Of a DNA stretch of 64,000 nucleotides, positions 1,537-14,924 are shown piece after piece. The notes below the pieces were generated by a model. That model was not told the DNA's origin and ran no database searches. It worked only from the letters and a program-made list of their open reading frames with translations. How positions within the stretch are numbered: the first letter of the stretch is position 1; each line of letters begins with the position of its first letter. The stretch is from assembly GCA_945890715.1 (NCBI GenBank), contig CAMDCX010000005.1:2478-66477 (forward strand), read 5' to 3'. The position numbers were made by a program, and so were the translations under genes. This DNA comes from PVC group bacterium. GTDB taxonomy: Bacteria; Verrucomicrobiota; Kiritimatiellia; CAIKKV01; CAITUY01.

Positions 1537-1731
1537 ATGAGCATGATTTCTAAGTCCACCCTTAAATCACAACAACGCATACGGCAGCAGAAGCTTGGAC
1601 AGTTTTTGACTGCGACGCCTACTGCCGATTTCATGTCGGCAATGTTCGGGCCGCTTCCGAGCAAGGTTCGTTTGCTTGATGCGGGGGCTGGTTCTGGCGC
1701 ACTCACTTACGCATTTGTCTCTCGCGTGTGT
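1537..1731 (+). pseudogene. N6-adenine DNA methyltransferase (PstI/Eco57I-like), N-terminal fragment only
   Basis: Contains KLGQFLTATPTADFMSAMF and the SAM motif-I-like VRLLDAGAGSGALTYAF. Homology stops abruptly where the GGGAACAAGGTGAC repeat block begins at 1732. Confidence 0.6.
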
Positions 1732-1897
1732 GGGAACAAGGTGACAGGCTAGAATGGCACTTTGGGAACAAGGTGACTGGGAACAAGGTTGGGAACAAGG
1801 TGACAGCCTGTCACCTTGTTCCGATGAAAGATAGCTCGGAAATTCACGGCTTACAGTCTATTAGCCTGTCACCAGCCTGTCACCTTGTTCCGGTCTT
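1732..1897. mobile_element. MITE/REPIN-like miniature element made only of the end sequences of the 9.5-10.7 kb element
   Basis: Four direct GGGAACAAGG(TGAC) copies start at 1732, 1764, 1779 and 1791. A 31-nt perfect palindrome lies at 1792-1822. Segment 1823-1866 is identical over 44 nt to 10632-10675, and GTCACCTTGTTCCGGTCTTG is also shared with 10677-10696. Confidence 0.6.
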
Positions 1898-1972
1898 GAC
1901 TTCGCTTCTCATGGGTGTCCCTGGTCCCCCTCAGAAAAGCGATTTCTTATCCATTCAGCTGCGGACGGAGGG

Positions 1973-7487: not shown

Positions 7488-8465
7488 TTACCGTATCGAG
7501 ATCACGGTGCCCTGGATCTGCACGCGGTACCGCACGATCACGATGCCCGAGCCGCCGTTGCCGCCTCCGCCTCCGCCGCCTGTATTTGGTAATCCTGATT
7601 CAGCCGCGATGGCTGTATCACCTGTGCTCACGCGGCCTTTACCTCCGCCACCTAACCCGCCACTGGCAGCCGCGGGGGCAGGCGTACCTCCCCCTCGAGC
7701 GCCGCCACCGCCGCCGCCGGCGTATGGGGTTGGTGTACCTGTAATAGACGACTCTTTGCCATCACCGCCCTTGCCGCCTGCGGGACCAAATGTGTCTGCC
7801 CCGGCGGCCAAAGCTCCGCCACCGCCACCGCCGGCCCGCAGGGTATAAGGTGAAGATTGGCCTCTTCCCTTTCCGCCGCTTGAGCCTTGCGACGGCGTGG
7901 TAGGGGGCATATTCCCGCCGCCGCCGGCGCCATGGTTGCCATCGTTGTTTCCGCCGCCCCCGCCGCCAGAGCCGCCAGCAGCCCCGGGCCAAAGAGTACT
8001 GGTAGTCGTCGAGTGATTCCCGCCGCCCCCGCCACCGGCCGATATGATGCCGGCAAATGAGGATTGACCGCCGTTCTCCCCTATTGCTGTAGCTGTTCCC
8101 TTATTTCCTCCAACTCCGACTTCAATCGGATAATCTTGTATGCTGACAGTCAAACTGCCTTCTCTAAACCCACCACCGCCTCCTCCGCCGCCATAGGCAT
8201 TACCACCGCCGCCGCCGCCGCCGACCACCAGGTATTCGACCTCGCCGCCTGCTGTAACTTCTAATGGGCCGGACCCGGTGTTCGTGAAGCTATGGACTCT
8301 CCAGCGCGTACCCGTGTCGTCCGGATACTCTTGCTCAATTCCGCCTTTGGCTTGCACCCAGGAAGCCTGCGCCGTCCCCATCATCCCCATCGCCAAGGCG
8401 AACACCGCGGCGATCATCCGCACGGATTTGAACTTTCGTGTCTTCTTGAACTTTCGTGTCTTCAT
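7488..8465 (-). CDS. Secreted glycine-rich domain protein
   Basis: 325 aa with signal peptide ...AMGMMGTAQA. It has long GGGGGG runs interspersed with short beta segments and ends ...GGSGIVIVRYRV..., as in glycine-rich-domain proteins. The strand choice is supported by the signal peptide; the overlapping ORFs are Pro/Ala-rich mirror artefacts. Confidence 0.7.
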   Translation of the reverse strand: MKTRKFKKTRKFKSVRMIAAVFALAMGMMGTAQASWVQAKGGIEQEYPDDTGTRWRVHSFTNTGSGPLEVTAGGEVEYLVVGGGGGGGNAYGGGGGGGGFREGSLTVSIQDYPIEVGVGGNKGTATAIGENGGQSSFAGIISAGGGGGGNHSTTTSTLWPGAAGGSGGGGGGNNDGNHGAGGGGNMPPTTPSQGSSGGKGRGQSSPYTLRAGGGGGGALAAGADTFGPAGGKGGDGKESSITGTPTPYAGGGGGGARGGGTPAPAAASGGLGGGGKGRVSTGDTAIAAESGLPNTGGGGGGGNGGSGIVIVRYRVQIQGTVISIR

Positions 8466-8603: not shown

Positions 8604-9452
8604 TTACGGCTTGCCGCGTGGCGTTTTGCCGAAGGCATCGCGGTAAACGTGGTGGAAGTGCCGTGTGTCGGGCATGCCGACACAAACGGCAATATCGGAG
8701 ACCGATAGGTCGGGTTGGGTTGCAAGCAACGCGCGGGCCTGCGCAAGCCGGACATCCAGGACAAATCTCTTGGGCGACATGCCCGTGCATTCTCGGAAGA
8801 GCTGACGGAAGCGCCCCGTAGAAAGATTGCAAAGTTGAGCCATTCGTGTGACCGTCCATGCGGCGGCACAGTTCTCCCGTACCCTGCCAAGGATACGGGT
8901 AATCCTGATATCCTGTTTCACGGGCATTGCACGCAGCCTGTTGCCATGCGTCAGTTGCTCATAGAGAAGCCAGGTGACCACCTGTTGGAAAAAGGGCTTT
9001 CCCATCGGATGGGAGCAGCCGAGAAGGTGCGTACAAGTGGCCAGCTTCTTGAACCAGAGCGCCTTGTCCGCGAGAACGCCAAAGGGGGTTGCGAGCTTGT
9101 CGAAGAAGCGATGCCCATTTGCGTCGACGGCATGCAGATGCAGGGCGAACACCTCGTAGGAGTCGGTGCCATCAGCCATGGTGACGCCGTGCCGTTGCCC
9201 GGCGGAGACCATGATGAAGTGGCCGGGTCCGACATCGCGGGACACGTCTCCGACCGTGCAGCGCAGGCTCCCCTTGCGCGGCACATAAATAAAATCATCC
9301 GGGATGATACGGCTGTCGGGAATCGTCTTGAACTCATCGCTCTCGTATAGCAGGCAGGAGAGCGGCAGGATCTCAATCGCGCCAAACAAGTCCGTGATCG
9401 CCTCACGGTCTTCCGCTGTAAGAAATTCGGGCAAAGCTGATGCTATTTTCAT
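8604..9452 (-). CDS. AraC-family transcriptional regulator (cupin sensor plus HTH)
   Basis: 282 aa. The C-terminal part (...WTVTRMAQLCNLSTGRFRQLFRECTGMSPKRFVLDVRLAQARALL...SDIAVCVGMPDTRHFHHVYRDAFG) is the AraC HTH signature. Confidence 0.85.
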   Translation of the reverse strand: MKIASALPEFLTAEDREAITDLFGAIEILPLSCLLYESDEFKTIPDSRIIPDDFIYVPRKGSLRCTVGDVSRDVGPGHFIMVSAGQRHGVTMADGTDSYEVFALHLHAVDANGHRFFDKLATPFGVLADKALWFKKLATCTHLLGCSHPMGKPFFQQVVTWLLYEQLTHGNRLRAMPVKQDIRITRILGRVRENCAAAWTVTRMAQLCNLSTGRFRQLFRECTGMSPKRFVLDVRLAQARALLATQPDLSVSDIAVCVGMPDTRHFHHVYRDAFGKTPRGKP

Positions 9453-9606
9453 GCCGATTTTTACAACAATGGCGGGCTGTGGTCAATCGGGGAACAACGG
9501 GAACAACGGGGAACAAGGTGACAGGCTATTAGTATAGAAATACATTTACATACGTATAGATTGTGCTAGTCTTTCCACAGTTGGGGAGGAACCCCGGGAG
9601 GTGACT

Positions 9607-9765
9607 ATGCGTAAGGCTAGGATTGTTGAGGTAATGGCGGCGTACTATCACGTGGTGTCACGAGTGGTGGGGCGGGAACGTCTGTTCGACGCGGCGGAGG
9701 AGCGGGAACGGTTCACCAAGACCATGAGGCAGGTGCAAGGGGGGCGTGATAAGTATGAAGGATGA
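9607..9765 (+). pseudogene. Y1 transposase-like (IS200/REP-associated tyrosine transposase type), N-terminal fragment
   Basis: A 52-codon ORF, MRKARIVEVMAAYYHVVSRVVGRERLFDAAEERERFTKTMRQVQG..., below the ORF-track cutoff. It parallels the second copy at 12222. There is no HUH motif or catalytic Tyr. Confidence 0.6.
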
Positions 9766-9810
9766 ATTATGAAGGATGAATTATGAAGGAGGAATTATGA
9801 GGGATGAAAA
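9755..9810 (+). repeat. Four tandem copies of a 14-bp unit, ATGAAGGATGAATT
   Basis: Read directly: ATGAAGGATGAATT, ATGAAGGATGAATT, ATGAAGGAGGAATT, ATGAGGGATGAAAA. Each unit carries an SD-like AAGGA and an ATG. The last SD (AAGGAGG) precedes the ATG at 9797. Confidence 0.9.
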
Positions 9811-10144
9811 GCCCGAGGATTTAAGACCGCGTACCAAGAGGTTTGCGCTCGACGTGATTCGCCTGTATGCAACATTGCCAAAATCAACAGAAGCGCAGGT
9901 GTTGGGGCGGCAAGTATTGAGGTCTGGTACATCTGTGGGCGCGAATTATCGTGAGGCTTATCGGTCCCGATCCAAAGTCGAATTCATTGCGAAAATTGGA
10001 GATTGTCTCAAGGAACTTGAGGAGTCCGGTTATTGGTTTGAACTACTTGCCGAGAGTGCCATGATGGATGCGTCTAAAATGCTGGGCATTCGAGATGAAT
10101 GTAATCAACTTCTAGCCATTATGACCACAATTTCAAAGAAATAA
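9797..10144 (+). CDS. Four-helix-bundle protein (23S rRNA intervening-sequence protein / Avd family, TIGR02436-like)
   Basis: 115 aa. Contains ...RFALDVIRLYATLPKSTEAQVLGRQVLRSGTSVGANYREAYRSRSKVEFIAKIGDCLKELEESGYWFELL..., the signature of this family. A strong SD (AAGGAGG) lies 4 nt upstream. The gene is visibly AT-richer than its surroundings (GC not computed). Confidence 0.85.
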   Translation: MRDEKPEDLRPRTKRFALDVIRLYATLPKSTEAQVLGRQVLRSGTSVGANYREAYRSRSKVEFIAKIGDCLKELEESGYWFELLAESAMMDASKMLGIRDECNQLLAIMTTISKK

Positions 10145-10162
10145 AAAGCAGGGCTTTCATAA

Positions 10163-10185
10163 TTCATAATTCATCCTTCATCCTT
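10163..10185. repeat. Inverted-repeat partner of 9751-9773, closing the four-helix-bundle cassette
   Basis: The reverse complement of 10163-10185 is AAGGATGAAGGATGAATTATGAA; 9751-9773 reads AAGTATGAAGGATGAATTATGAA (22/23 match). The arms enclose 389 bp. Confidence 0.85.
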
Positions 10186-10438
10186 GCTGAAGGGGGTGAT
10201 GGCGGCGAGAGGGAAGTTATCATTGAACGAGATCCTGCGATGCCGGGTGAGATACTTTACGGATGGGGTGATTCTGGGGAGTCGGGTGTTTGTTGAAGAC
10301 CAGTACCGCAAGCGTCGTGGCCTGTTCAGCGAGAAGCGCGAAACGGGTGCGCGTCCGATGAAAGGTGCGGAGTATGGGGGACTGTGTACGGTTCGTCAGC
10401 TTCGGGTGGATGTCTATGGTCATGGCGCGCCGGCGTAG
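10184..10438 (+). pseudogene. Y1 transposase-like protein, C-terminal fragment
   Basis: Contains ...GKLSLNEILRCRVRYFTDGVILGSRVFVEDQYRKRRGLFSEKRETGARPMKGAEYGGLCTVRQLRVDVYG.... It is homologous to the fragment at 14475-14654. It begins exactly at the end of the inverted repeat. Confidence 0.6.
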
Positions 10439-10700
10439 TGGGTAGGGGTTGGAAAATCCGGCAGGGCAGGGCGGATCTCATGCGGCTGGTAGCCAGAACC
10501 AGTCGCATTGGAGCATTGCGTGTGGCATGCCGATTTGGTGTAATCCTGATAGATTTTAAGCGAGAGTTGGTGGCTGAAGCTGGCCTACTGGTTAATGGAT
10601 CGCTCATAAGGGTGTCCTGATTGAATAACATGATGAAAGATAGCTCGGAAATTCACGGCTTACAGTCTATTAGCCGGTCACCTTGTTCCGGTCTTGTTCC

Positions 10701-10946
10701 ATTATCCAAAGCTTGGATTCGATCTCGACGCAACCCGTGGTCTGGAAGGGCCTGCGTCTTTACGGATGCTGGCATTGGAATCATCTGACCGACACCGAAC
10801 GGATGATGCGCACGATTGCCGGCTCGTCAGAACGGATTGACAAAATGATCACGCATCGCTTTCCGATGGAGAAACTGGGTGATGCGTTCGATCTCCAGGT
10901 ATCCGGTTTATGTGGCAAAGTGATCATCCATCCATGGGAGGCATAA
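10701..10946 (+). pseudogene. Zn-dependent alcohol dehydrogenase paralog, C-terminal fragment
   Basis: ...GLRLYGCWHWNHLTDTERMMRTIAGSSERIDKMITHRFPMEKLGDAFDLQVSGLCGKVIIHP aligns with the C-terminus of the adjacent intact ADH. The N-terminal ~270 codons are missing at the element E1 boundary. Confidence 0.6.
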
Positions 10947-11986
10947 TGAAGACAGTTGCGATTACAGGTAAGCAGAGTTGTAAAATCGTCAAAAAACAGG
11001 TGCCGAAGGCCAAAGATGACTACGTCGTGGTGAAAATTCATACGGCGCCTTTATGCACGGAATACACCGATTACCGCGATGGTTGCACTCGGGCGGAGTT
11101 CAAGCGCGGTGACGAATCGCCGGACTGCCTCGGGCACGAGGCCGCGGGAGAGGTGGTCGAAATTGCCCAACCCGGAAAGGTCAAAGTTGGAGATCGTGTG
11201 GTGGTTATGCCGGGGTTCTGGTGCGGAAAGTGCCGCTTCTGCCTGTCAGGTGAATATATCCATTGCCAGAATCCGCCGAACCCCCTTACCCACTGCGGAT
11301 GCGAGGCGGGAGTTGCCGCGTATGCGGAGTATTGCCTGAAGCAGGACTGGCTGCTGTTGCCGATCCCGGACGGGATGTCTTATGACCATGCGTCCATGGC
11401 TTGCTGTGGCCTCGGGCCCGCGTTCAATTCCATGCAGACCATGGAGGTGTGCGGACACGACACGGTGCTCGTCGCAGGCACGGGACCGGTTGGACTCGGC
11501 GCGGTCATCTGCGCCACCTACCGGGGCGCACGGGTGATCTGCCTGGGACGCAACCCCTATCGCACTAAACTCGCACTGAAACTGGGCGCGGAGGCGGTGC
11601 TGGATCCCCAGGATAAGAACATAAAACAACAGATTTTTGATCTGACAGACGGGGAAGGCGCTTCCAAATCGGTTGAAACCACGGGATACCACCTTTATAT
11701 GGATGTGGTGATGAAGTCCACCCGACGCATGGGACAAGTGGCTATTGTTGGCGAGGGTGGCGAATATCCTCTGCATATCAGTGACGGGCTGATTCGCACC
11801 GGTCTTCAACTCCACGGTATCTGGCATTGGAATCTTGCCGACGCTCCGGACATGATGCGCATGATTGGCCGCGTGGGCGGCAAGCTTGACACGGTGATAA
11901 CTCACCACTTCCCGCTGGATCAGATTGAGAAAGCCTGGCAGTTGCAGATGACCGGGCAGTGCGGCAAAGTCATCATTAACCCCTAA
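10946..11986 (+). CDS. Zinc-dependent medium-chain alcohol/polyol dehydrogenase
   Basis: The ATG at 10946 overlaps the upstream fragment stop (TAATG). Contains GHEAAGEVVE, the structural-Zn Cys cluster CGKCRFCLSGEYIHC and the Rossmann motif VLVAGTGPVGLG. Confidence 0.85.
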   Translation: MKTVAITGKQSCKIVKKQVPKAKDDYVVVKIHTAPLCTEYTDYRDGCTRAEFKRGDESPDCLGHEAAGEVVEIAQPGKVKVGDRVVVMPGFWCGKCRFCLSGEYIHCQNPPNPLTHCGCEAGVAAYAEYCLKQDWLLLPIPDGMSYDHASMACCGLGPAFNSMQTMEVCGHDTVLVAGTGPVGLGAVICATYRGARVICLGRNPYRTKLALKLGAEAVLDPQDKNIKQQIFDLTDGEGASKSVETTGYHLYMDVVMKSTRRMGQVAIVGEGGEYPLHISDGLIRTGLQLHGIWHWNLADAPDMMRMIGRVGGKLDTVITHHFPLDQIEKAWQLQMTGQCGKVIINP

Positions 11987-12010
11987 CGGATAGAACACAG
12001 GAGAGCAGCC

Positions 12011-12136
12011 ATGAGCAAGGAAGAACAATGGGTAACGGTAAAAGGAACGGAAGGGCCGGGCAAAGGCAAGCACATCGTCTTCATCAGCGGTGATGAGGAA
12101 TATCGCTCCGAGGGGCCGCCAGGGACAGGAAAATAG
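12011..12136 (+). pseudogene. ThuA-like domain protein, N-terminal fragment (tentative)
   Basis: A 41-codon ORF, MSKEEQWVTVKGTEGPGKGKHIVFISGDEEYRSEG..., where the ...IVFISGDEEYRSE pattern resembles ThuA-like proteins from memory. It ends where element E2 sequence begins. Confidence 0.35.
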
Positions 12137-12221
12137 TTAAAATAGTTTGAAATATAATAGAGTATAGGTTCGTTATGAGTAGAAGAGGCACCGGGAGGGG
12201 TGCCTGAGGGAGGAGACTCAT

Positions 12222-12386
12222 ATGCGAACAGCGAGAATCGTGGAGGATGGGGCGGCATATTATCATGTGATGTCGCGGGTGGTGGATCGGCGTCGGGTGT
12301 TTGATGAGGGGGAGAAGGAGCTCTTTCGCAAGACGATGCGGGCGGTTGCCGGATGTATAGGCTGGCTGAATTTGGGAAGACGCTGA
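12222..12386 (+). pseudogene. Y1 transposase-like protein, N-terminal fragment (copy 2)
   Basis: MRTARIVEDGAAYYHVMSRVVDRRRVFDEGEKELFRKTMRAVAG... followed by a stop. It shares about 55-60% aa identity with 9607-9765, with many synonymous differences. It is preceded by the hairpin GGCACCgggaggGGTGCC and a GGAGG SD. Confidence 0.6.
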
Positions 12387-12440
12387 AGCAACGGGTAAGT
12401 TTTTCGTATAACGATATGTCACGGGCGAAATACTATCTTC

Positions 12441-12468
12441 CTGGTCTCCCTGGTCTCCTCTGGTCTCC
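12441..12468 (+). repeat. Three tandem copies of a 9-bp unit, CTGGTCTCC
   Basis: Read directly: CTGGTCTCC CTGGTCTCC t CTGGTCTCC. Confidence 0.8.
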
Positions 12469-12561
12469 CTACCCAATTAGGGAATTAAGCAAGGTAGGTT
12501 GAATTCCTGTGATGAAACAGGTAGTGTCCCTGCTTCAACTACTATGTGAAGGAGAACGGCG

Positions 12562-14385
12562 ATGAAAGTGTTACCCCTGTGTGTCATGATGATCGTAATG
12601 GCGACTGTCGGGCTTGGGGCAGTCACACGCTCCGACCTCGCGCCCGCCACGATCAGTGTCCTGCCGGCGCAGGTTTCCATTATCAAGGTGAAGGGAGGGA
12701 ACACCATCGAAGGTGAAATCCTGAAAAACGAAGGATCATCCAACGATGTTGTGATCAAGATCGACACTGGCAAGATCGTCAGCCGCAAGCGTTATCCAAA
12801 ATCAGACATTGTTGAAATCAAGCCTGAAAACCTGGAATTACTTCTGGCCAATGCCATCCGGTCGCTTCACACGCCCCCCAAGACGAACCTCACGGAAAGC
12901 GCCTATGCCGCAACGGTAGCGCTGTGCGATGATTTCCTGGCTCATTGGCCCTCGAGTCAGGAATCCAACTGGATATCGGAGCGACGCAAGGAATTCGCCT
13001 CCGAACAGGAAAAAGGCGTCCGCGGCCTCGAAAAACTGGATGGCGAATGGATGCCGCCGATCAAGGCGTCCGTTAGTCGTTATATTGCAGAAAGCCTTAT
13101 CATCTCCAAGGCCCAGGCCCAATACCCGGGTATTGATAATCCCACCTATACCCAGAATCCTTCGGCAAGGAAATCGTATGAACGGGTTCTGGAGAGACGA
13201 CGAGCCATCGCGCGTCGGCTCCCCTCACTGATGAATGAACGCATCCCGATCCTGCTGGCGGCAAAGGATTTCGATCAGGCCGCCTCTGAAATGGACACCT
13301 TTGTCCGGTTCTGGGTCGAGCGGGTAACCCGCAACCGGATCACTCGCGGCAATGCCGGCAAGGGCGGGGAATCGGAGTTTGCCGAGATGGATTTCTCGGC
13401 CATTATCGCCATGGAAAAGAAAATCATGGCCGCCTATCTGAAAGACCGGAATCCCGCCGAATTGAAACCGCCCGCTAACGTGGATCCTGGCATGGTGTTC
13501 ATTCCTGGAGGCCTGTTCCTGATGGGCCGTGAAAATGCGACCCCGGCGGATTCTGATTTCCCCATGCGGCTGATTCGGGTTAATCCTTTCCTGATTACCC
13601 GCTGTGAGGTTTCTAATGCGGAATACCGCCGGTTTGTCGAGCATGTCAAATCCACCCAGGACTACAGCATGGAGCATCCCGACGCGCCGCCCCTCAAGGA
13701 TCACAAGCCTGACGGCTGGAATACTCCGTCGTTGAGCCGGGATGTCCAGCCGGTAGCCGGGGTCGACTGGTATGACGCCTATGCCTTTGCGAAATGGAAA
13801 GGCATGCGTTTGCCGACCGAGGCGGAATGGGAGCTGGCTGCCCGGGGAACAGATTGCCGGGATTATCCCTGGGGGGCAACTTCCCCCGCGGAATTGGTCG
13901 TAAACAATCCTTCAGGGCGTAGTTATATCGCCGCAGAAATGGATAAACGTGACCCCCCGCCACCCCCTCCGCGTTTTTCCTGCACCCGCCAGGAACCGAG
14001 GCCTCCCCGGGTTCTTCCGGTCGAGACTTGGGATGTCACCCAAGGCGTACCTCAGGAGTTGTTGGGCGGACTCTTCACGATGGACTCGGCGGGCACCCCG
14101 TATGGCTTGCTGCATATGGCCGGAAATGTGGCGGAATGGGTTCAGGACTGGTTCGATCCCGATGCCTATTGTGTCATGAGCCAGGACAACCCGGTTCATG
14201 TCAACAAAGGGCAATGGCATATCTATCGCGGCGGTTCCTACTTGAGCCCGGATGCCGAACTGAGAACCACGGCCAGAGGTAACGGCACCCCTCCCTATTT
14301 CAACAAGGGTTGCCAACCCGGTTCAGGCATCCCGATCATCGGGTTCCGGTGCGTCAAGGATATCCCGTCCGCGCCCGGAAAATAG
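12562..14385 (+). CDS. Secreted protein with a C-terminal formylglycine-generating-enzyme (FGE-sulfatase/SUMF1) domain
   Basis: 607 aa with an N-terminal signal or TM segment. The C-terminal ~290 aa contain ...MVFIPGGLFLMG...RCEVSNAEYRRFV...PVAGVDWYDAYAFAKWKGMRLPTEAEWELAARG...HMAGNVAEWVQDW...YRGGSY...GFRCV. The domain is interrupted by a Pro-rich insert (DPPPPPPRF...). Confidence 0.8.
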   Translation: MKVLPLCVMMIVMATVGLGAVTRSDLAPATISVLPAQVSIIKVKGGNTIEGEILKNEGSSNDVVIKIDTGKIVSRKRYPKSDIVEIKPENLELLLANAIRSLHTPPKTNLTESAYAATVALCDDFLAHWPSSQESNWISERRKEFASEQEKGVRGLEKLDGEWMPPIKASVSRYIAESLIISKAQAQYPGIDNPTYTQNPSARKSYERVLERRRAIARRLPSLMNERIPILLAAKDFDQAASEMDTFVRFWVERVTRNRITRGNAGKGGESEFAEMDFSAIIAMEKKIMAAYLKDRNPAELKPPANVDPGMVFIPGGLFLMGRENATPADSDFPMRLIRVNPFLITRCEVSNAEYRRFVEHVKSTQDYSMEHPDAPPLKDHKPDGWNTPSLSRDVQPVAGVDWYDAYAFAKWKGMRLPTEAEWELAARGTDCRDYPWGATSPAELVVNNPSGRSYIAAEMDKRDPPPPPPRFSCTRQEPRPPRVLPVETWDVTQGVPQELLGGLFTMDSAGTPYGLLHMAGNVAEWVQDWFDPDAYCVMSQDNPVHVNKGQWHIYRGGSYLSPDAELRTTARGNGTPPYFNKGCQPGSGIPIIGFRCVKDIPSAPGK

Positions 14386-14654: not shown

Positions 14655-14769
14655 CGGGGGTGGTGGCGGATATCAGGATGAATCCGGTCGGCACTTCACG
14701 CCCGCCGTCATCCGGTATTGTGTTGGGATGGCTGATTTGGTCTATTTGCATCCAGTCTCCTTCCCTCCT

Positions 14770-14924
14770 TCCTGGTGGTCAGAAATGTACCCAGCGACGA
14801 AATCCGACGGCTTGCCGTGGCCCGGGGAATGGAGACCTTGCGGCATAATGCCTGGCAAGTCGCTATGGAAGGAATTACCACCGTTGAGGAAGTCCTGCGC
14901 GTCACTCCCGGCGAACGAACTTGA
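14770..14924 (+). pseudogene. GspE/PilB-type secretion ATPase, extreme C-terminal fragment
   Basis: Hand translation gives ...VPSDEIRRLAVARGMETLRHNAWQVAMEGITTVEEVLRVTPGERT*, matching the conserved tail (G.TT.EEVLRVT) of type II/IV secretion ATPases. The rest of the gene is absent. Confidence 0.45.

Follow-up and report, generated by a model that had tools for sequence, protein, structure and literature searches.

The unit at 9510-10689 of the window, which is the whole 64,000-nucleotide (nt) stretch analysed here from contig CAMDCX010000005.1 of a PVC group bacterium (GCA_945890715.1), is probably a decayed copy of a TIRtron that lost an internal segment by a repeat-mediated deletion and holds a four-helix-bundle (4HB) cassette of the intervening-sequence (IVS) type; on this reading two selfish elements are nested. 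The outer element would be a dead copy of a 1,356-nt element that is flanked by terminal inverted repeats (TIRs) and codes for a 337-amino-acid (aa) Y1 HUH 'RayT-like' protein (TIRtron/TIRYT, similar to TnpA-Y1 subclass 2.1). About 636 nt appear to have been lost from it between two GCAGGTG repeats, and the 452-nt 4HB cassette would occupy the same junction, with no order of events implied. Coordinates are those of the window throughout; L-numbers denote loci and P-numbers proteins from genome and metagenome searches. An earlier note on this DNA had described the unit as a RAYT scaffold bounded by repetitive extragenic palindromic (REP) sequences, with its catalytic core exchanged for a passenger gene.

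The two ends of one transposase gene

Two short open reading frames (ORFs) flank the 4HB gene, an N fragment (9601/9607-9765, 54/52 aa) and a C fragment (10184-10438, 84 aa). The suggestion that they are the two ends of one transposase-type protein is confirmed by L024, from the metagenome-assembled genome (MAG) 'bacterium isolate ELA110', which has a single uninterrupted ORF of 337/339 aa and DNA 92-93% identical to window 9599-9740 and 10188-10689. L024 holds the HUH motif (GNHFHILL) and the tyrosine motif (YIDLNPVRAG; AVAAYIDLNPVRAG) precisely in the stretch that is absent from the window, as had been expected of the missing part. Since the window copy contains neither, it is a pseudogene and cannot be catalytic. 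The native part of the N stub closes with GCAGGTG (9729-9735), and the ORF continues to a TGA (9763-9765) inside the second heptamer of the cassette arm. Possible starts of the C stub are TTG 10184, GTG 10196 and ATG 10199. For annotation, the locus indicates that short 'hypothetical' ORFs beside 'four helix bundle protein' genes can be halves of one disrupted gene.

Relative to L024, about 636 nt are missing from the window (212 codons; residues about 46-258, including HUH and the catalytic Tyr). GCAGGTG occurs in L024 at nt 131 and 767. In the window the native sequence stops at GCAGGTG and restarts at 10188 with TGAAGGGGG, which corresponds to nt 772 of L024. Both deletion endpoints are within this 7-nt direct repeat, present twice in the intact gene, and a loss bounded in this way is the signature of a repeat-mediated deletion. 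The deletion accounts for the loss of the core, so an exchange of core for passenger was not upheld. Enzyme-mediated excision between pseudo-sites is only an idea as to the cause of the loss. The cassette is located exactly at the deletion joint.

The limits of the outer unit are set by the 23-nt inverted repeats, 9510-9532 and 10667-10689, which are complementary at 21 of 23 positions; these repeats, together with extra subterminal copies, are present as first described. The 23-mer end pattern occurs four times in the window with up to 3 mismatches (0.00 expected), and the 13-mer GGAACAAGGTGAC seven times with up to 1 mismatch (0.10 expected). The number of partial repeats at the left end differs among copies (left ends of L051, L053, L054 and L056 compared). 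The presumed promoter/leader of the transposase gene (9533-9606) is 97% identical to the leader of the intact copy L054 and can be aligned across copies; a promoter and terminator scan gave nothing above shuffled background, its one match being weak (9518-9546). Rfam gave no rRNA or other credible match in 9300-10900.

An intact element with the same TIRs as the window copy extends over L140 1404-2759 and measures 1,356 nt, both TIRs included. At least 17 contigs carry an intact copy (P0298, 98% identical to L024), with no fewer than three flank contexts among them, and scaffold_5532 (L142/L143/L054) has two such copies, one on either side of an RHS-repeat gene. At six other loci the ends halt at the same nucleotides as in the window and are followed by unrelated DNA. 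No target-site duplication of the outer element was found in L140, L142, L143 or the window. An exact scan for the end motif in 185,579 genomes gave 36 matches where about 35 are expected by chance, an estimate based on an 18-mer, two-fold at one position, and 596 Gb of sequence; the source genome is not among the representatives scanned. Only L024, L032, L051, L053, L054 and L056 are genuine by extended homology, and the closest element copies, L053 and L056, come from MAGs labelled Verrucomicrobiota, which suggests that phylum for the host. The end motif is thus found both within the window and in other genomes, as predicted. Both ends are kept, the HUH-Tyr core and with it a functional transposase is lost, and intact autonomous relatives exist, which agrees with the description of the unit as a defective, non-autonomous Y1/RAYT-like copy. 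The outer copy cannot move on its own; since it retains both ends, intact paralogues might mobilise it in trans.

Searches of Pfam and NCBIfam with the two stubs alone gave only noise. Since the stubs are too short for profile scoring, the family was assigned through full-length relatives. Profile PF01797 (Y1_Tnp; cutoff 23 bits), proposed beforehand as a check, gives 40.1 bits for L024 and 44.7 bits for the N part of L010. The full-length relative scores 67.4 bits against the RAYT equivalog model NF047646 (cutoff 80) and 20 bits against the IS200 model NF033573 (cutoff 55). More than 7,597 homologues were retrieved at E<=1e-20, nearly all of about 337 aa and labelled 'REP element-mobilizing transposase RayT' by JGI, with a further 215 clusters of 50% identity at E<=1e-30. 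A query made from the fused stubs retrieved short relatives, among them natural in-frame N+C fusions without a cassette (P0004, P0016, P0023).

The C-terminal part of about 80 codons is open and its protein nearly unchanged in every truncated copy (10188-10438; L001-L004, L024). Its ratio of nonsynonymous to synonymous divergence (dN/dS) is 0-0.03 for the window against L024 and L002, with dN = 0 against L024, and 11 synonymous changes and 1 non-synonymous change against L002. In several copies the C stub is severed from the catalytic domain, at differing points, which marks it as a conserved TIRYT module that persists after the separation. The C-terminal extension of the full-length protein had no match to a helix-turn-helix (HTH) or DnaA_C domain in Pfam, and the AF2 model of the C fragment is of low confidence (pLDDT 61).

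RAYT, REPtron and REPIN systems were reportedly treated by Nunvar in 2010 and by Bertels and Rainey in 2011, and RAYTs are typically single-copy and domesticated. The outer element resembles them in a Y1 HUH enzyme nearer to RAYT than to IS200 (67 versus 20 bits), in short palindromic units related to the gene flanks and dispersed in the genome, and in miniature non-autonomous derivatives. It differs in that the full-length relative is below the NCBIfam RAYT cutoff, in that the flanks are 23-nt TIRs and not GT[AG]G-tagged REP hairpins, and in that the window-type gene is multi-copy (the near-identical intact copies above). The end motif is likewise laid out as TIRs and not as classical REP hairpins. 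The name 'REP-bounded RAYT' therefore holds for the Y1_Tnp domain, which passes in Pfam, but not for the RAYT cutoff, the copy number or the flanks.

The outer element appears to fit the TIRtron/TIRYT family better than a REP-flanked, single-copy RAYT. This family was described by Di Nocera et al. 2013 (PMC3733652) and equals TnpA-Y1 subclass 2.1 of Quentin et al. 2018 (PMC6006769), or RAYT group 1. Shared features are a RAYT-like Y1 protein with HUH and a Y..NP tyrosine motif, a long protein (337 aa) in which sequence is inserted behind HUH and the C terminus is extended by a conserved part, TIRs that lie about 100 nt before and about 250 nt behind the gene, TIR units dispersed as dimers or clusters, and paralogues with differing TIRs. 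The fit to the published GGGGWSAS is loose, 5/8 for GGGGAACA and 7/8 for AGGGACAG of the second paralogue. The HTH/DnaA_C-like C-terminal domain of subclass 2.1 has no Pfam match here, the assignment being made by description and not by a tree, and the window copy differs further in its internal deletion and foreign cassette. The IS200/IS605 family shares the Y1 HUH domain family PF01797 and likewise makes no target-site duplications, but the tyrosine motif here is of class 2 (Y..NP, not Y...Q), no tnpB is present, TIRs stand instead of distinct subterminal hairpins, and NF033573 is far below its cutoff.

The nested cassette

The cassette has a GC content of 43.4%, compared with 59-60% in both stubs and 56.2% in the window. 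The reading of its ORF as an AT-richer 4HB gene of the 23S rRNA IVS/Avd family in the place of the core was borne out by PF05635 (9.4e-18; 64.8 bits, cutoff 33.8), TIGR02436 (3.7e-24; 85 bits, cutoff 24) and a match to PDB 2rld_A (1.1e-17). Inverted repeats of 30 nt (9751-9780 / 10156-10185) are 90% complementary, and in the RNA fold the arms make a closing stem. Every reading frame of the left arm contains both ATG and TGA, and the 4HB start codon is preceded by AGGAGG at a distance of 5 nt. The number of heptamer units varies, with three 14-nt units in the window and one in L002 and L015.

It is proposed that the cassette relies on read-through transcription from its host gene, with the transposase leader as the source in the window. 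The heptamer arms would supply TGA and ATG in three frames and a purine-rich ribosome-binding site; with both codons in every frame, upstream translation would stop and that of the 4HB protein would start in whichever frame the cassette lands. In RNA the arms would pair into a long stem comparable to those of the 23S rRNA IVS, which RNase III processes, and the 4HB protein would be kept by selection. The 4HB gene has a dN/dS of 0.09-0.18 and a synonymous divergence (dS) of 0.43-0.66 between cassette classes, values that suggest such maintenance. The protein may bind nucleic acid, by analogy with Avd. In the window the ORF stops 6 codons before that of all close relatives (TCA to TAA at 10142-10144; 115 versus 121 aa), and the tail lost by the premature TAA lies in the right arm.

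The cassette resembles the 23S rRNA IVS of Leptospira, Coxiella and Xanthomonas in its length (about 430-450 nt) and PF05635 ORF, in inverted repeats around the ORF that pair into a stem, in variable tandem heptamers just before the start codon and in a GC content below that of the host. In Coxiella a stem cut by RNase III and a variable number of tandem heptamers before the S23p ORF have been described (PMC4990558). The differences are in location, heptamer and ORF. The window cassette is in a protein-coding pseudogene and relatives lie between operon cistrons, not in helix 25 or 45 of the 23S rRNA; its heptamer is ATGAAGG/ATGAATT and not GACAGAT; and the window ORF has a strong ribosome-binding site and is under apparent purifying selection, whereas the Coxiella ORF is reported to be decaying. 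Excision of the window cassette by RNase III is predicted from this likeness. Avd of diversity-generating retroelements belongs to the same 4HB superfamily, PF05635 being the family cited for it (PMC10053308). The unit differs in that neither a reverse transcriptase nor a template/variable repeat pair occurs in it or beside it, its ORFs being three; genes within about 3 kb of it code for AraC-family, ADH, ThuA and FGE-domain proteins.

The 4HB gene was not upheld as simple cargo, because it sits in a heptamer-armed cassette of its own, which is found also in operons and other genes and seems to move independently. Its relatives number 6,949 at E<=1e-10, many about 70% identical and from diverse taxa. 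The arms were surveyed at 58 distinct metagenomic 4HB loci with sufficient flank by an upstream/downstream inverted-repeat score, with 290 shuffles as the control. A score of at least 13 was reached at 31 of the 58 loci and in 0 of the 290 shuffles, and tandem heptamers of the window type were seen at 45 of the 58. Consistent target-site duplications were not found at the other cassettes of this survey. Cassettes of one lineage, at least 99% identical to each other, were found in a TIRYT gene, in a methyltransferase-like region and at an hsdS-hsdM junction (L090, 1-800; L091, 400-1100; L093, 990-1500), and the homology of L093 to L090 and L091 stops at the arms. Since these contexts are unrelated, independent movement of the cassettes is suggested. 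Another cassette sits between oppC and oppD of an opp operon, and 4HB cassettes have been noted inside cas operons (PMC3936711). Cassette orientation was the same as that of the neighbouring ORF for 38 of 51 upstream and 34 of 50 downstream neighbours, by a crude method. In L090 and L091, upstream segments are also duplicated in tandem and remnants of arms lie there without an ORF, which suggests that cassettes pile up or degenerate where they are.

Cassettes close to that of the window (86-98% aa identity) are all inside TIRYT genes, at differing positions, and six junction classes were seen in this transposase family (Table 1, profile coordinates). All cassettes in TIRYT genes are co-oriented with the gene and all sever or remove its catalytic part. 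The earlier note had proposed to check whether passenger genes recur at the same position in many copies; they recur in the gene family, but at six different junction pairs. In the sample of 80 metagenomic 4HB loci, a TIRYT gene is touched by the cassette at only 3, and 2 of these 3 are close relatives of the window's cassette. The association with TIRYT genes is real for the window's cassette lineage; it could simply reflect the insertion tolerance of dispensable, transcribed, multi-copy genes.

The relative ages of cassette and scaffold were compared through synonymous differences. Between the window and L060 these are 35/79.7 in the 4HB gene and 60.3/86.2 in the scaffold (p=0.0009), and between the window and L002 they are 2/79.7 and 11/59.5, the cassette again being lower (p=0.002). 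The window and L060 scaffolds have a saturated dS (2.2-2.7) and a dN/dS of about 0.1, so they seem to have diverged as working genes before the cassettes did. The lower age of the cassettes argues for repeated acquisition and not for one ancient insertion.

Three side observations concern the cassette edges. Direct repeats surround the cassette in the window (AAGGGGG[GCG]TGAT, 9737-9750 and 10190-10200) and in L060 (TGGTAAGG, about 2482-2489 and about 2902-2909), and they copy the native sequence of the right junction. A window-type left repeat copy is present in L015 (1787-1800), at another site of another paralogue, so that the left copy of the AAGGGGG..TGAT repeat accompanies the cassette into L015. 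Finally, L154 (4390-4420) has the left flank, left TIRs, N stub and cassette in common with L060 (2890-2920), and unrelated DNA in place of the C stub and right end, directly after GTTGGTAAGG; this is a rearrangement at the cassette edge, from one sample set.

Table 1. Positions of the features discussed in the text, in window coordinates unless a profile position is given
Feature	Position	Strand	Basis or remark
Partial subterminal repeats (GGGAACAAC units) outside the left end	9488-9509	+	GGGAACAAC-type repeat run spans 9488-9521
Left terminal inverted repeat GGAACAAGGTGACAGGCTATTAG	9510-9532	+	Repeat finding; intact copies L140 and L142 bounded by identical terminus
Transposase-gene 5' leader	9533-9606	+	AT-rich stretch, then short GC hairpin (GGGGAGGAACCCC)
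N-terminal 43 codons of Y1 (TIRYT-type) gene (MRKARIVEVMAAYYHVVSRVV...MRQV)	9607-9735	+	Alignment to L024
IVS-type cassette, 452 nt	9736-10187	+	Same cassette in L002, L005-L015, L060
Left arm, tandem heptamers ATGAAGG/ATGAATT	9751-9808	+	Three 14-nt units
4HB protein gene, 115 aa	9797-10144 (alternative start 9776)	+	PF05635 / TIGR02436
Right arm, heptamer complement (TTCATAATTCATAATTCATCCTTCATCCTTGC)	10155-10187	+	Pairs with left arm
C-terminal ~80 codons of same Y1 gene (..VMAARGKLSLNEILRCRVRYFTDG...RQLRVDVYGHGAPA)	10188-10438	+	
3' non-coding part of element, conserved	10439-10666	+	Aligned with L001, L002, L004, L024 and intact L140
Right terminal inverted repeat	10667-10689	-	Pairs with left end
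Partial repeat GGTCTTGTTCC (10690-10700) plus 3 nt	10690-10703	+	Homology to relatives' uninterrupted ADH gene starts at 10704
Miniature (MITE-like) end-only derivative	1730-1898	+	Five GGAACAAGGTGAC units joined directly to last ~70 nt of right end
Second-paralogue remnant N2	12112-12470	+	67% aa identity to N1; L015 88% identical
5'-truncated second-paralogue remnant C2	14484-14782	+	Last ~55 codons and 3' region
Junction, window	profile 45/258		
Junction, L060, L146 and L147	profile 45/261		
Junction, L002	profile about 17/254		
Junction, L005-L014 and L061	profile 170/291		Left edge at catalytic Tyr codon
Junction, L015	profile 22/310		Paralogue is the window's second type
Junction, L090 (distant cassette)	profile right edge 183		

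Weighing of the explanations

Several points weigh against the reading as a decayed TIRtron copy with a nested cassette. The cassette lies precisely at the deletion junction, and the window-type and L060-type scaffolds share nearly equal junctions (45/258 and 45/261); the first is a notable coincidence, and neither would be expected if nested insertion were purely random. The fold energy of the cassette RNA is just modestly better than that of shuffles (z = -1.77), and the co-orientation with neighbours (about 70-75%) is not clearly above the usual bacterial background. Part of the lower synonymous divergence of the cassette could reflect constraint by RNA structure, and L002 is a short metagenome contig that is possibly chimeric. 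Expression, RNase III processing and frame-independent coupling are deduced from sequence. Three outcomes had been named in the earlier note as contrary to its own reading of the unit, namely fragments of unrelated proteins, an end motif that does not recur and an ordinary deletion history without mobility, and none of the three was observed.

A wider proposal is offered tentatively, as possible but doubtful. The 4HB cassettes would be a widespread and so far unformalised class of miniature mobile elements whose inverted heptamer arms work in any frame and which colonise transcribed DNA (rRNA, operons, defence loci, transposase genes). They would repeatedly and specifically invade TIRYT genes and destroy the core, through the Y1 enzyme, its DNA intermediates or a benefit to the host, and the severed C stub and the N+C mini-proteins may survive as regulators. 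Among the papers searched, none was found that treats 4HB cassettes as a mobile class in general or places them within genes for Y1 transposases; an earlier description elsewhere may exist. The nature of the rRNA IVS and its S23p/4HB ORF has been an open question since about 1990: they could be mobile elements or what transposition left behind, and the importance of the ORF is part of the same question. The locus and its relatives give sequence-level handles on this question, with the cassette design outside rRNA, near-identical copies in unrelated contexts, clear purifying selection on the 4HB protein and cassette limits set by the heptamer arms. They also exemplify the repeated inactivation of one selfish element, here a Y1 transposase family, by another.

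A more specific relationship, in which the cassettes home into TIRYT genes or are mobilised by TIRYT (Y1 acting on hairpin arms or GAAGG-like sites), or are selected as transposase killers, is considered unlikely. The six junction classes would agree with it, since they cover at least three deeply diverged paralogues and include a distant cassette lineage (L090, 63% aa identity), and so would the uniform co-orientation, the removal or severing of the catalytic region by every insertion and the synonymous divergence in support of independent acquisition. A GAAGG-like sequence, as in the heptamer unit, lies beside many junctions, and repeats similar to target-site duplications flank the cassettes (AAGGGGG..TGAT in the window, TGGTAAGG in L060). 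However, the junctions are scattered over profile positions 17-183 on the left and 183-310 on the right, the other cassettes have no consistent target-site duplication, and the 3 of 80 metagenomic loci that touch a TIRYT gene include two close kin of the window's cassette. Multi-copy, dispensable and transcribed transposase genes are also safe sites where insertions survive.

Evolution of the unit as a non-autonomous cargo transposon, with ends and stubs as scaffold, the 4HB gene as passenger and an intact Y1 enzyme acting in trans, seems quite improbable, and no evidence was found that the composite transposes as a unit. Both TIRs are kept with about 100 nt of left and about 250 nt of right subterminal sequence, which is well conserved, the miniature end-only derivatives show that non-autonomous forms belong to the family, and two intact copies bracket the RHS gene. 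A 97%-identical 4HB gene beside gatC/gatA in GCA_041443025.1 has a right flank unlike that of the window; this gene is known from its gene record only, and no second locus of the window-type composite was found at the DNA level among the loci retrieved. No composite was seen at two loci, for L060, L146, L147 and L154 have common flanks. The cassette has its own arms, 77 of the 80 sampled loci are without any TIRYT sequence, and junctions vary between scaffolds. The unequal divergence of cassette and flank between the window and L002 is also unexpected for a unit that moves whole.

It is very unlikely that a single ancient insertion into an ancestral TIRYT gene was followed by co-divergence of cassette and scaffold, with later deletions making the varied junctions. 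The 4HB classes are old relative to each other (dS 0.43-0.66), and the orientation of the cassette and its central or C-proximal position in the gene are constant. Against this, the saturated dS (about 2.2-2.7) and dN/dS of about 0.1 place the divergence of the scaffolds long before that of the cassettes, and intact copies without a cassette are nested among those that bear one, L024 being 92-93% identical to the window scaffold. An assembly artefact, that is, a chimeric repeat join, is hardly credible even for a repeat-rich region of an 80.7-kb metagenome-derived contig, since the right junction (cassette, C fragment and right end) was recovered from another, independent sample (L002), composites of this kind are present in many independent assemblies (L005-L015, L060, L146, L147, L154), and the records for the contig itself contain exactly this 115-aa 4HB product together with its neighbours.

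Neighbouring copies and broken genes

The window also has a miniature copy, similar to a miniature inverted-repeat transposable element (MITE), and two remnants of a second paralogue (Table 1), and ADH, ThuA and methyltransferase genes are truncated by element copies. The miniature copy contains a perfect 31-nt palindrome (1792-1822) and 51 nt that are 98% identical to 10632-10682. It interrupts a methyltransferase-like ORF (start 1537; ..LDAGAGSGALTYAF..) after about 65 codons. The N2 remnant has internal deletions, a further internal TIRYT piece and a terminal CTGGTCTCC x3, and it interrupts a ThuA gene after codon ~35. The end repeats of the second paralogue differ from those of the window element. 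The right boundary of the C2 remnant would be at about 14757-14782, judging from a TIR-like CTCCTTCCCTCCTTCCTGGTGGTC.

Comparison with related genomes, as the earlier note had advised, found the gene at the site to be uninterrupted, with intact ADH1 (337 aa), ADH2 and ThuA (314 aa) in a row in L148-L153. The synteny of the window with these loci is limited to 10704-12111 (1,408 nt; L148 1112-2519) at 92.8% identity. This block holds the last ~62 codons of ADH1, the whole of ADH2 and the first ~35 codons of ThuA; on one side it abuts the right end of the element, and on the other the left end of the second-paralogue remnant. A relative with the AraC orthologue has no element adjoining it, according to its gene table only. 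Since the genes are intact in relatives, the elements would be later arrivals at these sites, whose outward flanks would since have been lost or rearranged, likely by recombination between copies.

N2 (12222) and C2 (14484) flank, in direct orientation, a gene for a 607-aa secreted protein with an FGE-sulfatase domain (12562-14385). This gene is unlikely to be a second cargo that replaced a core, since the N2 piece has its own TIR-like CTGGTCTCC x3 end, and it is more likely that two separate remnants flank it. That right end of N2 is itself placed by inference, no inverted repeat to the left end being found at a 7-nt seed. The arrangement resembles the RHS gene between two intact copies on scaffold_5532 and could be similar to a composite transposon.

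Just past the C2 remnant, a short ORF (14775-14924) resembles the C terminus of an ATPase of type II secretion or type IV pili (..MEGITTVEEVLRVTPGE); this gene, too, is probably truncated. On the opposite side of the unit, a 325-aa ORF (7488-8465, minus strand) has a start like that of a signal peptide and very long glycine runs (GGGGGGG..), which is unusual and suggests a low-complexity secreted protein.

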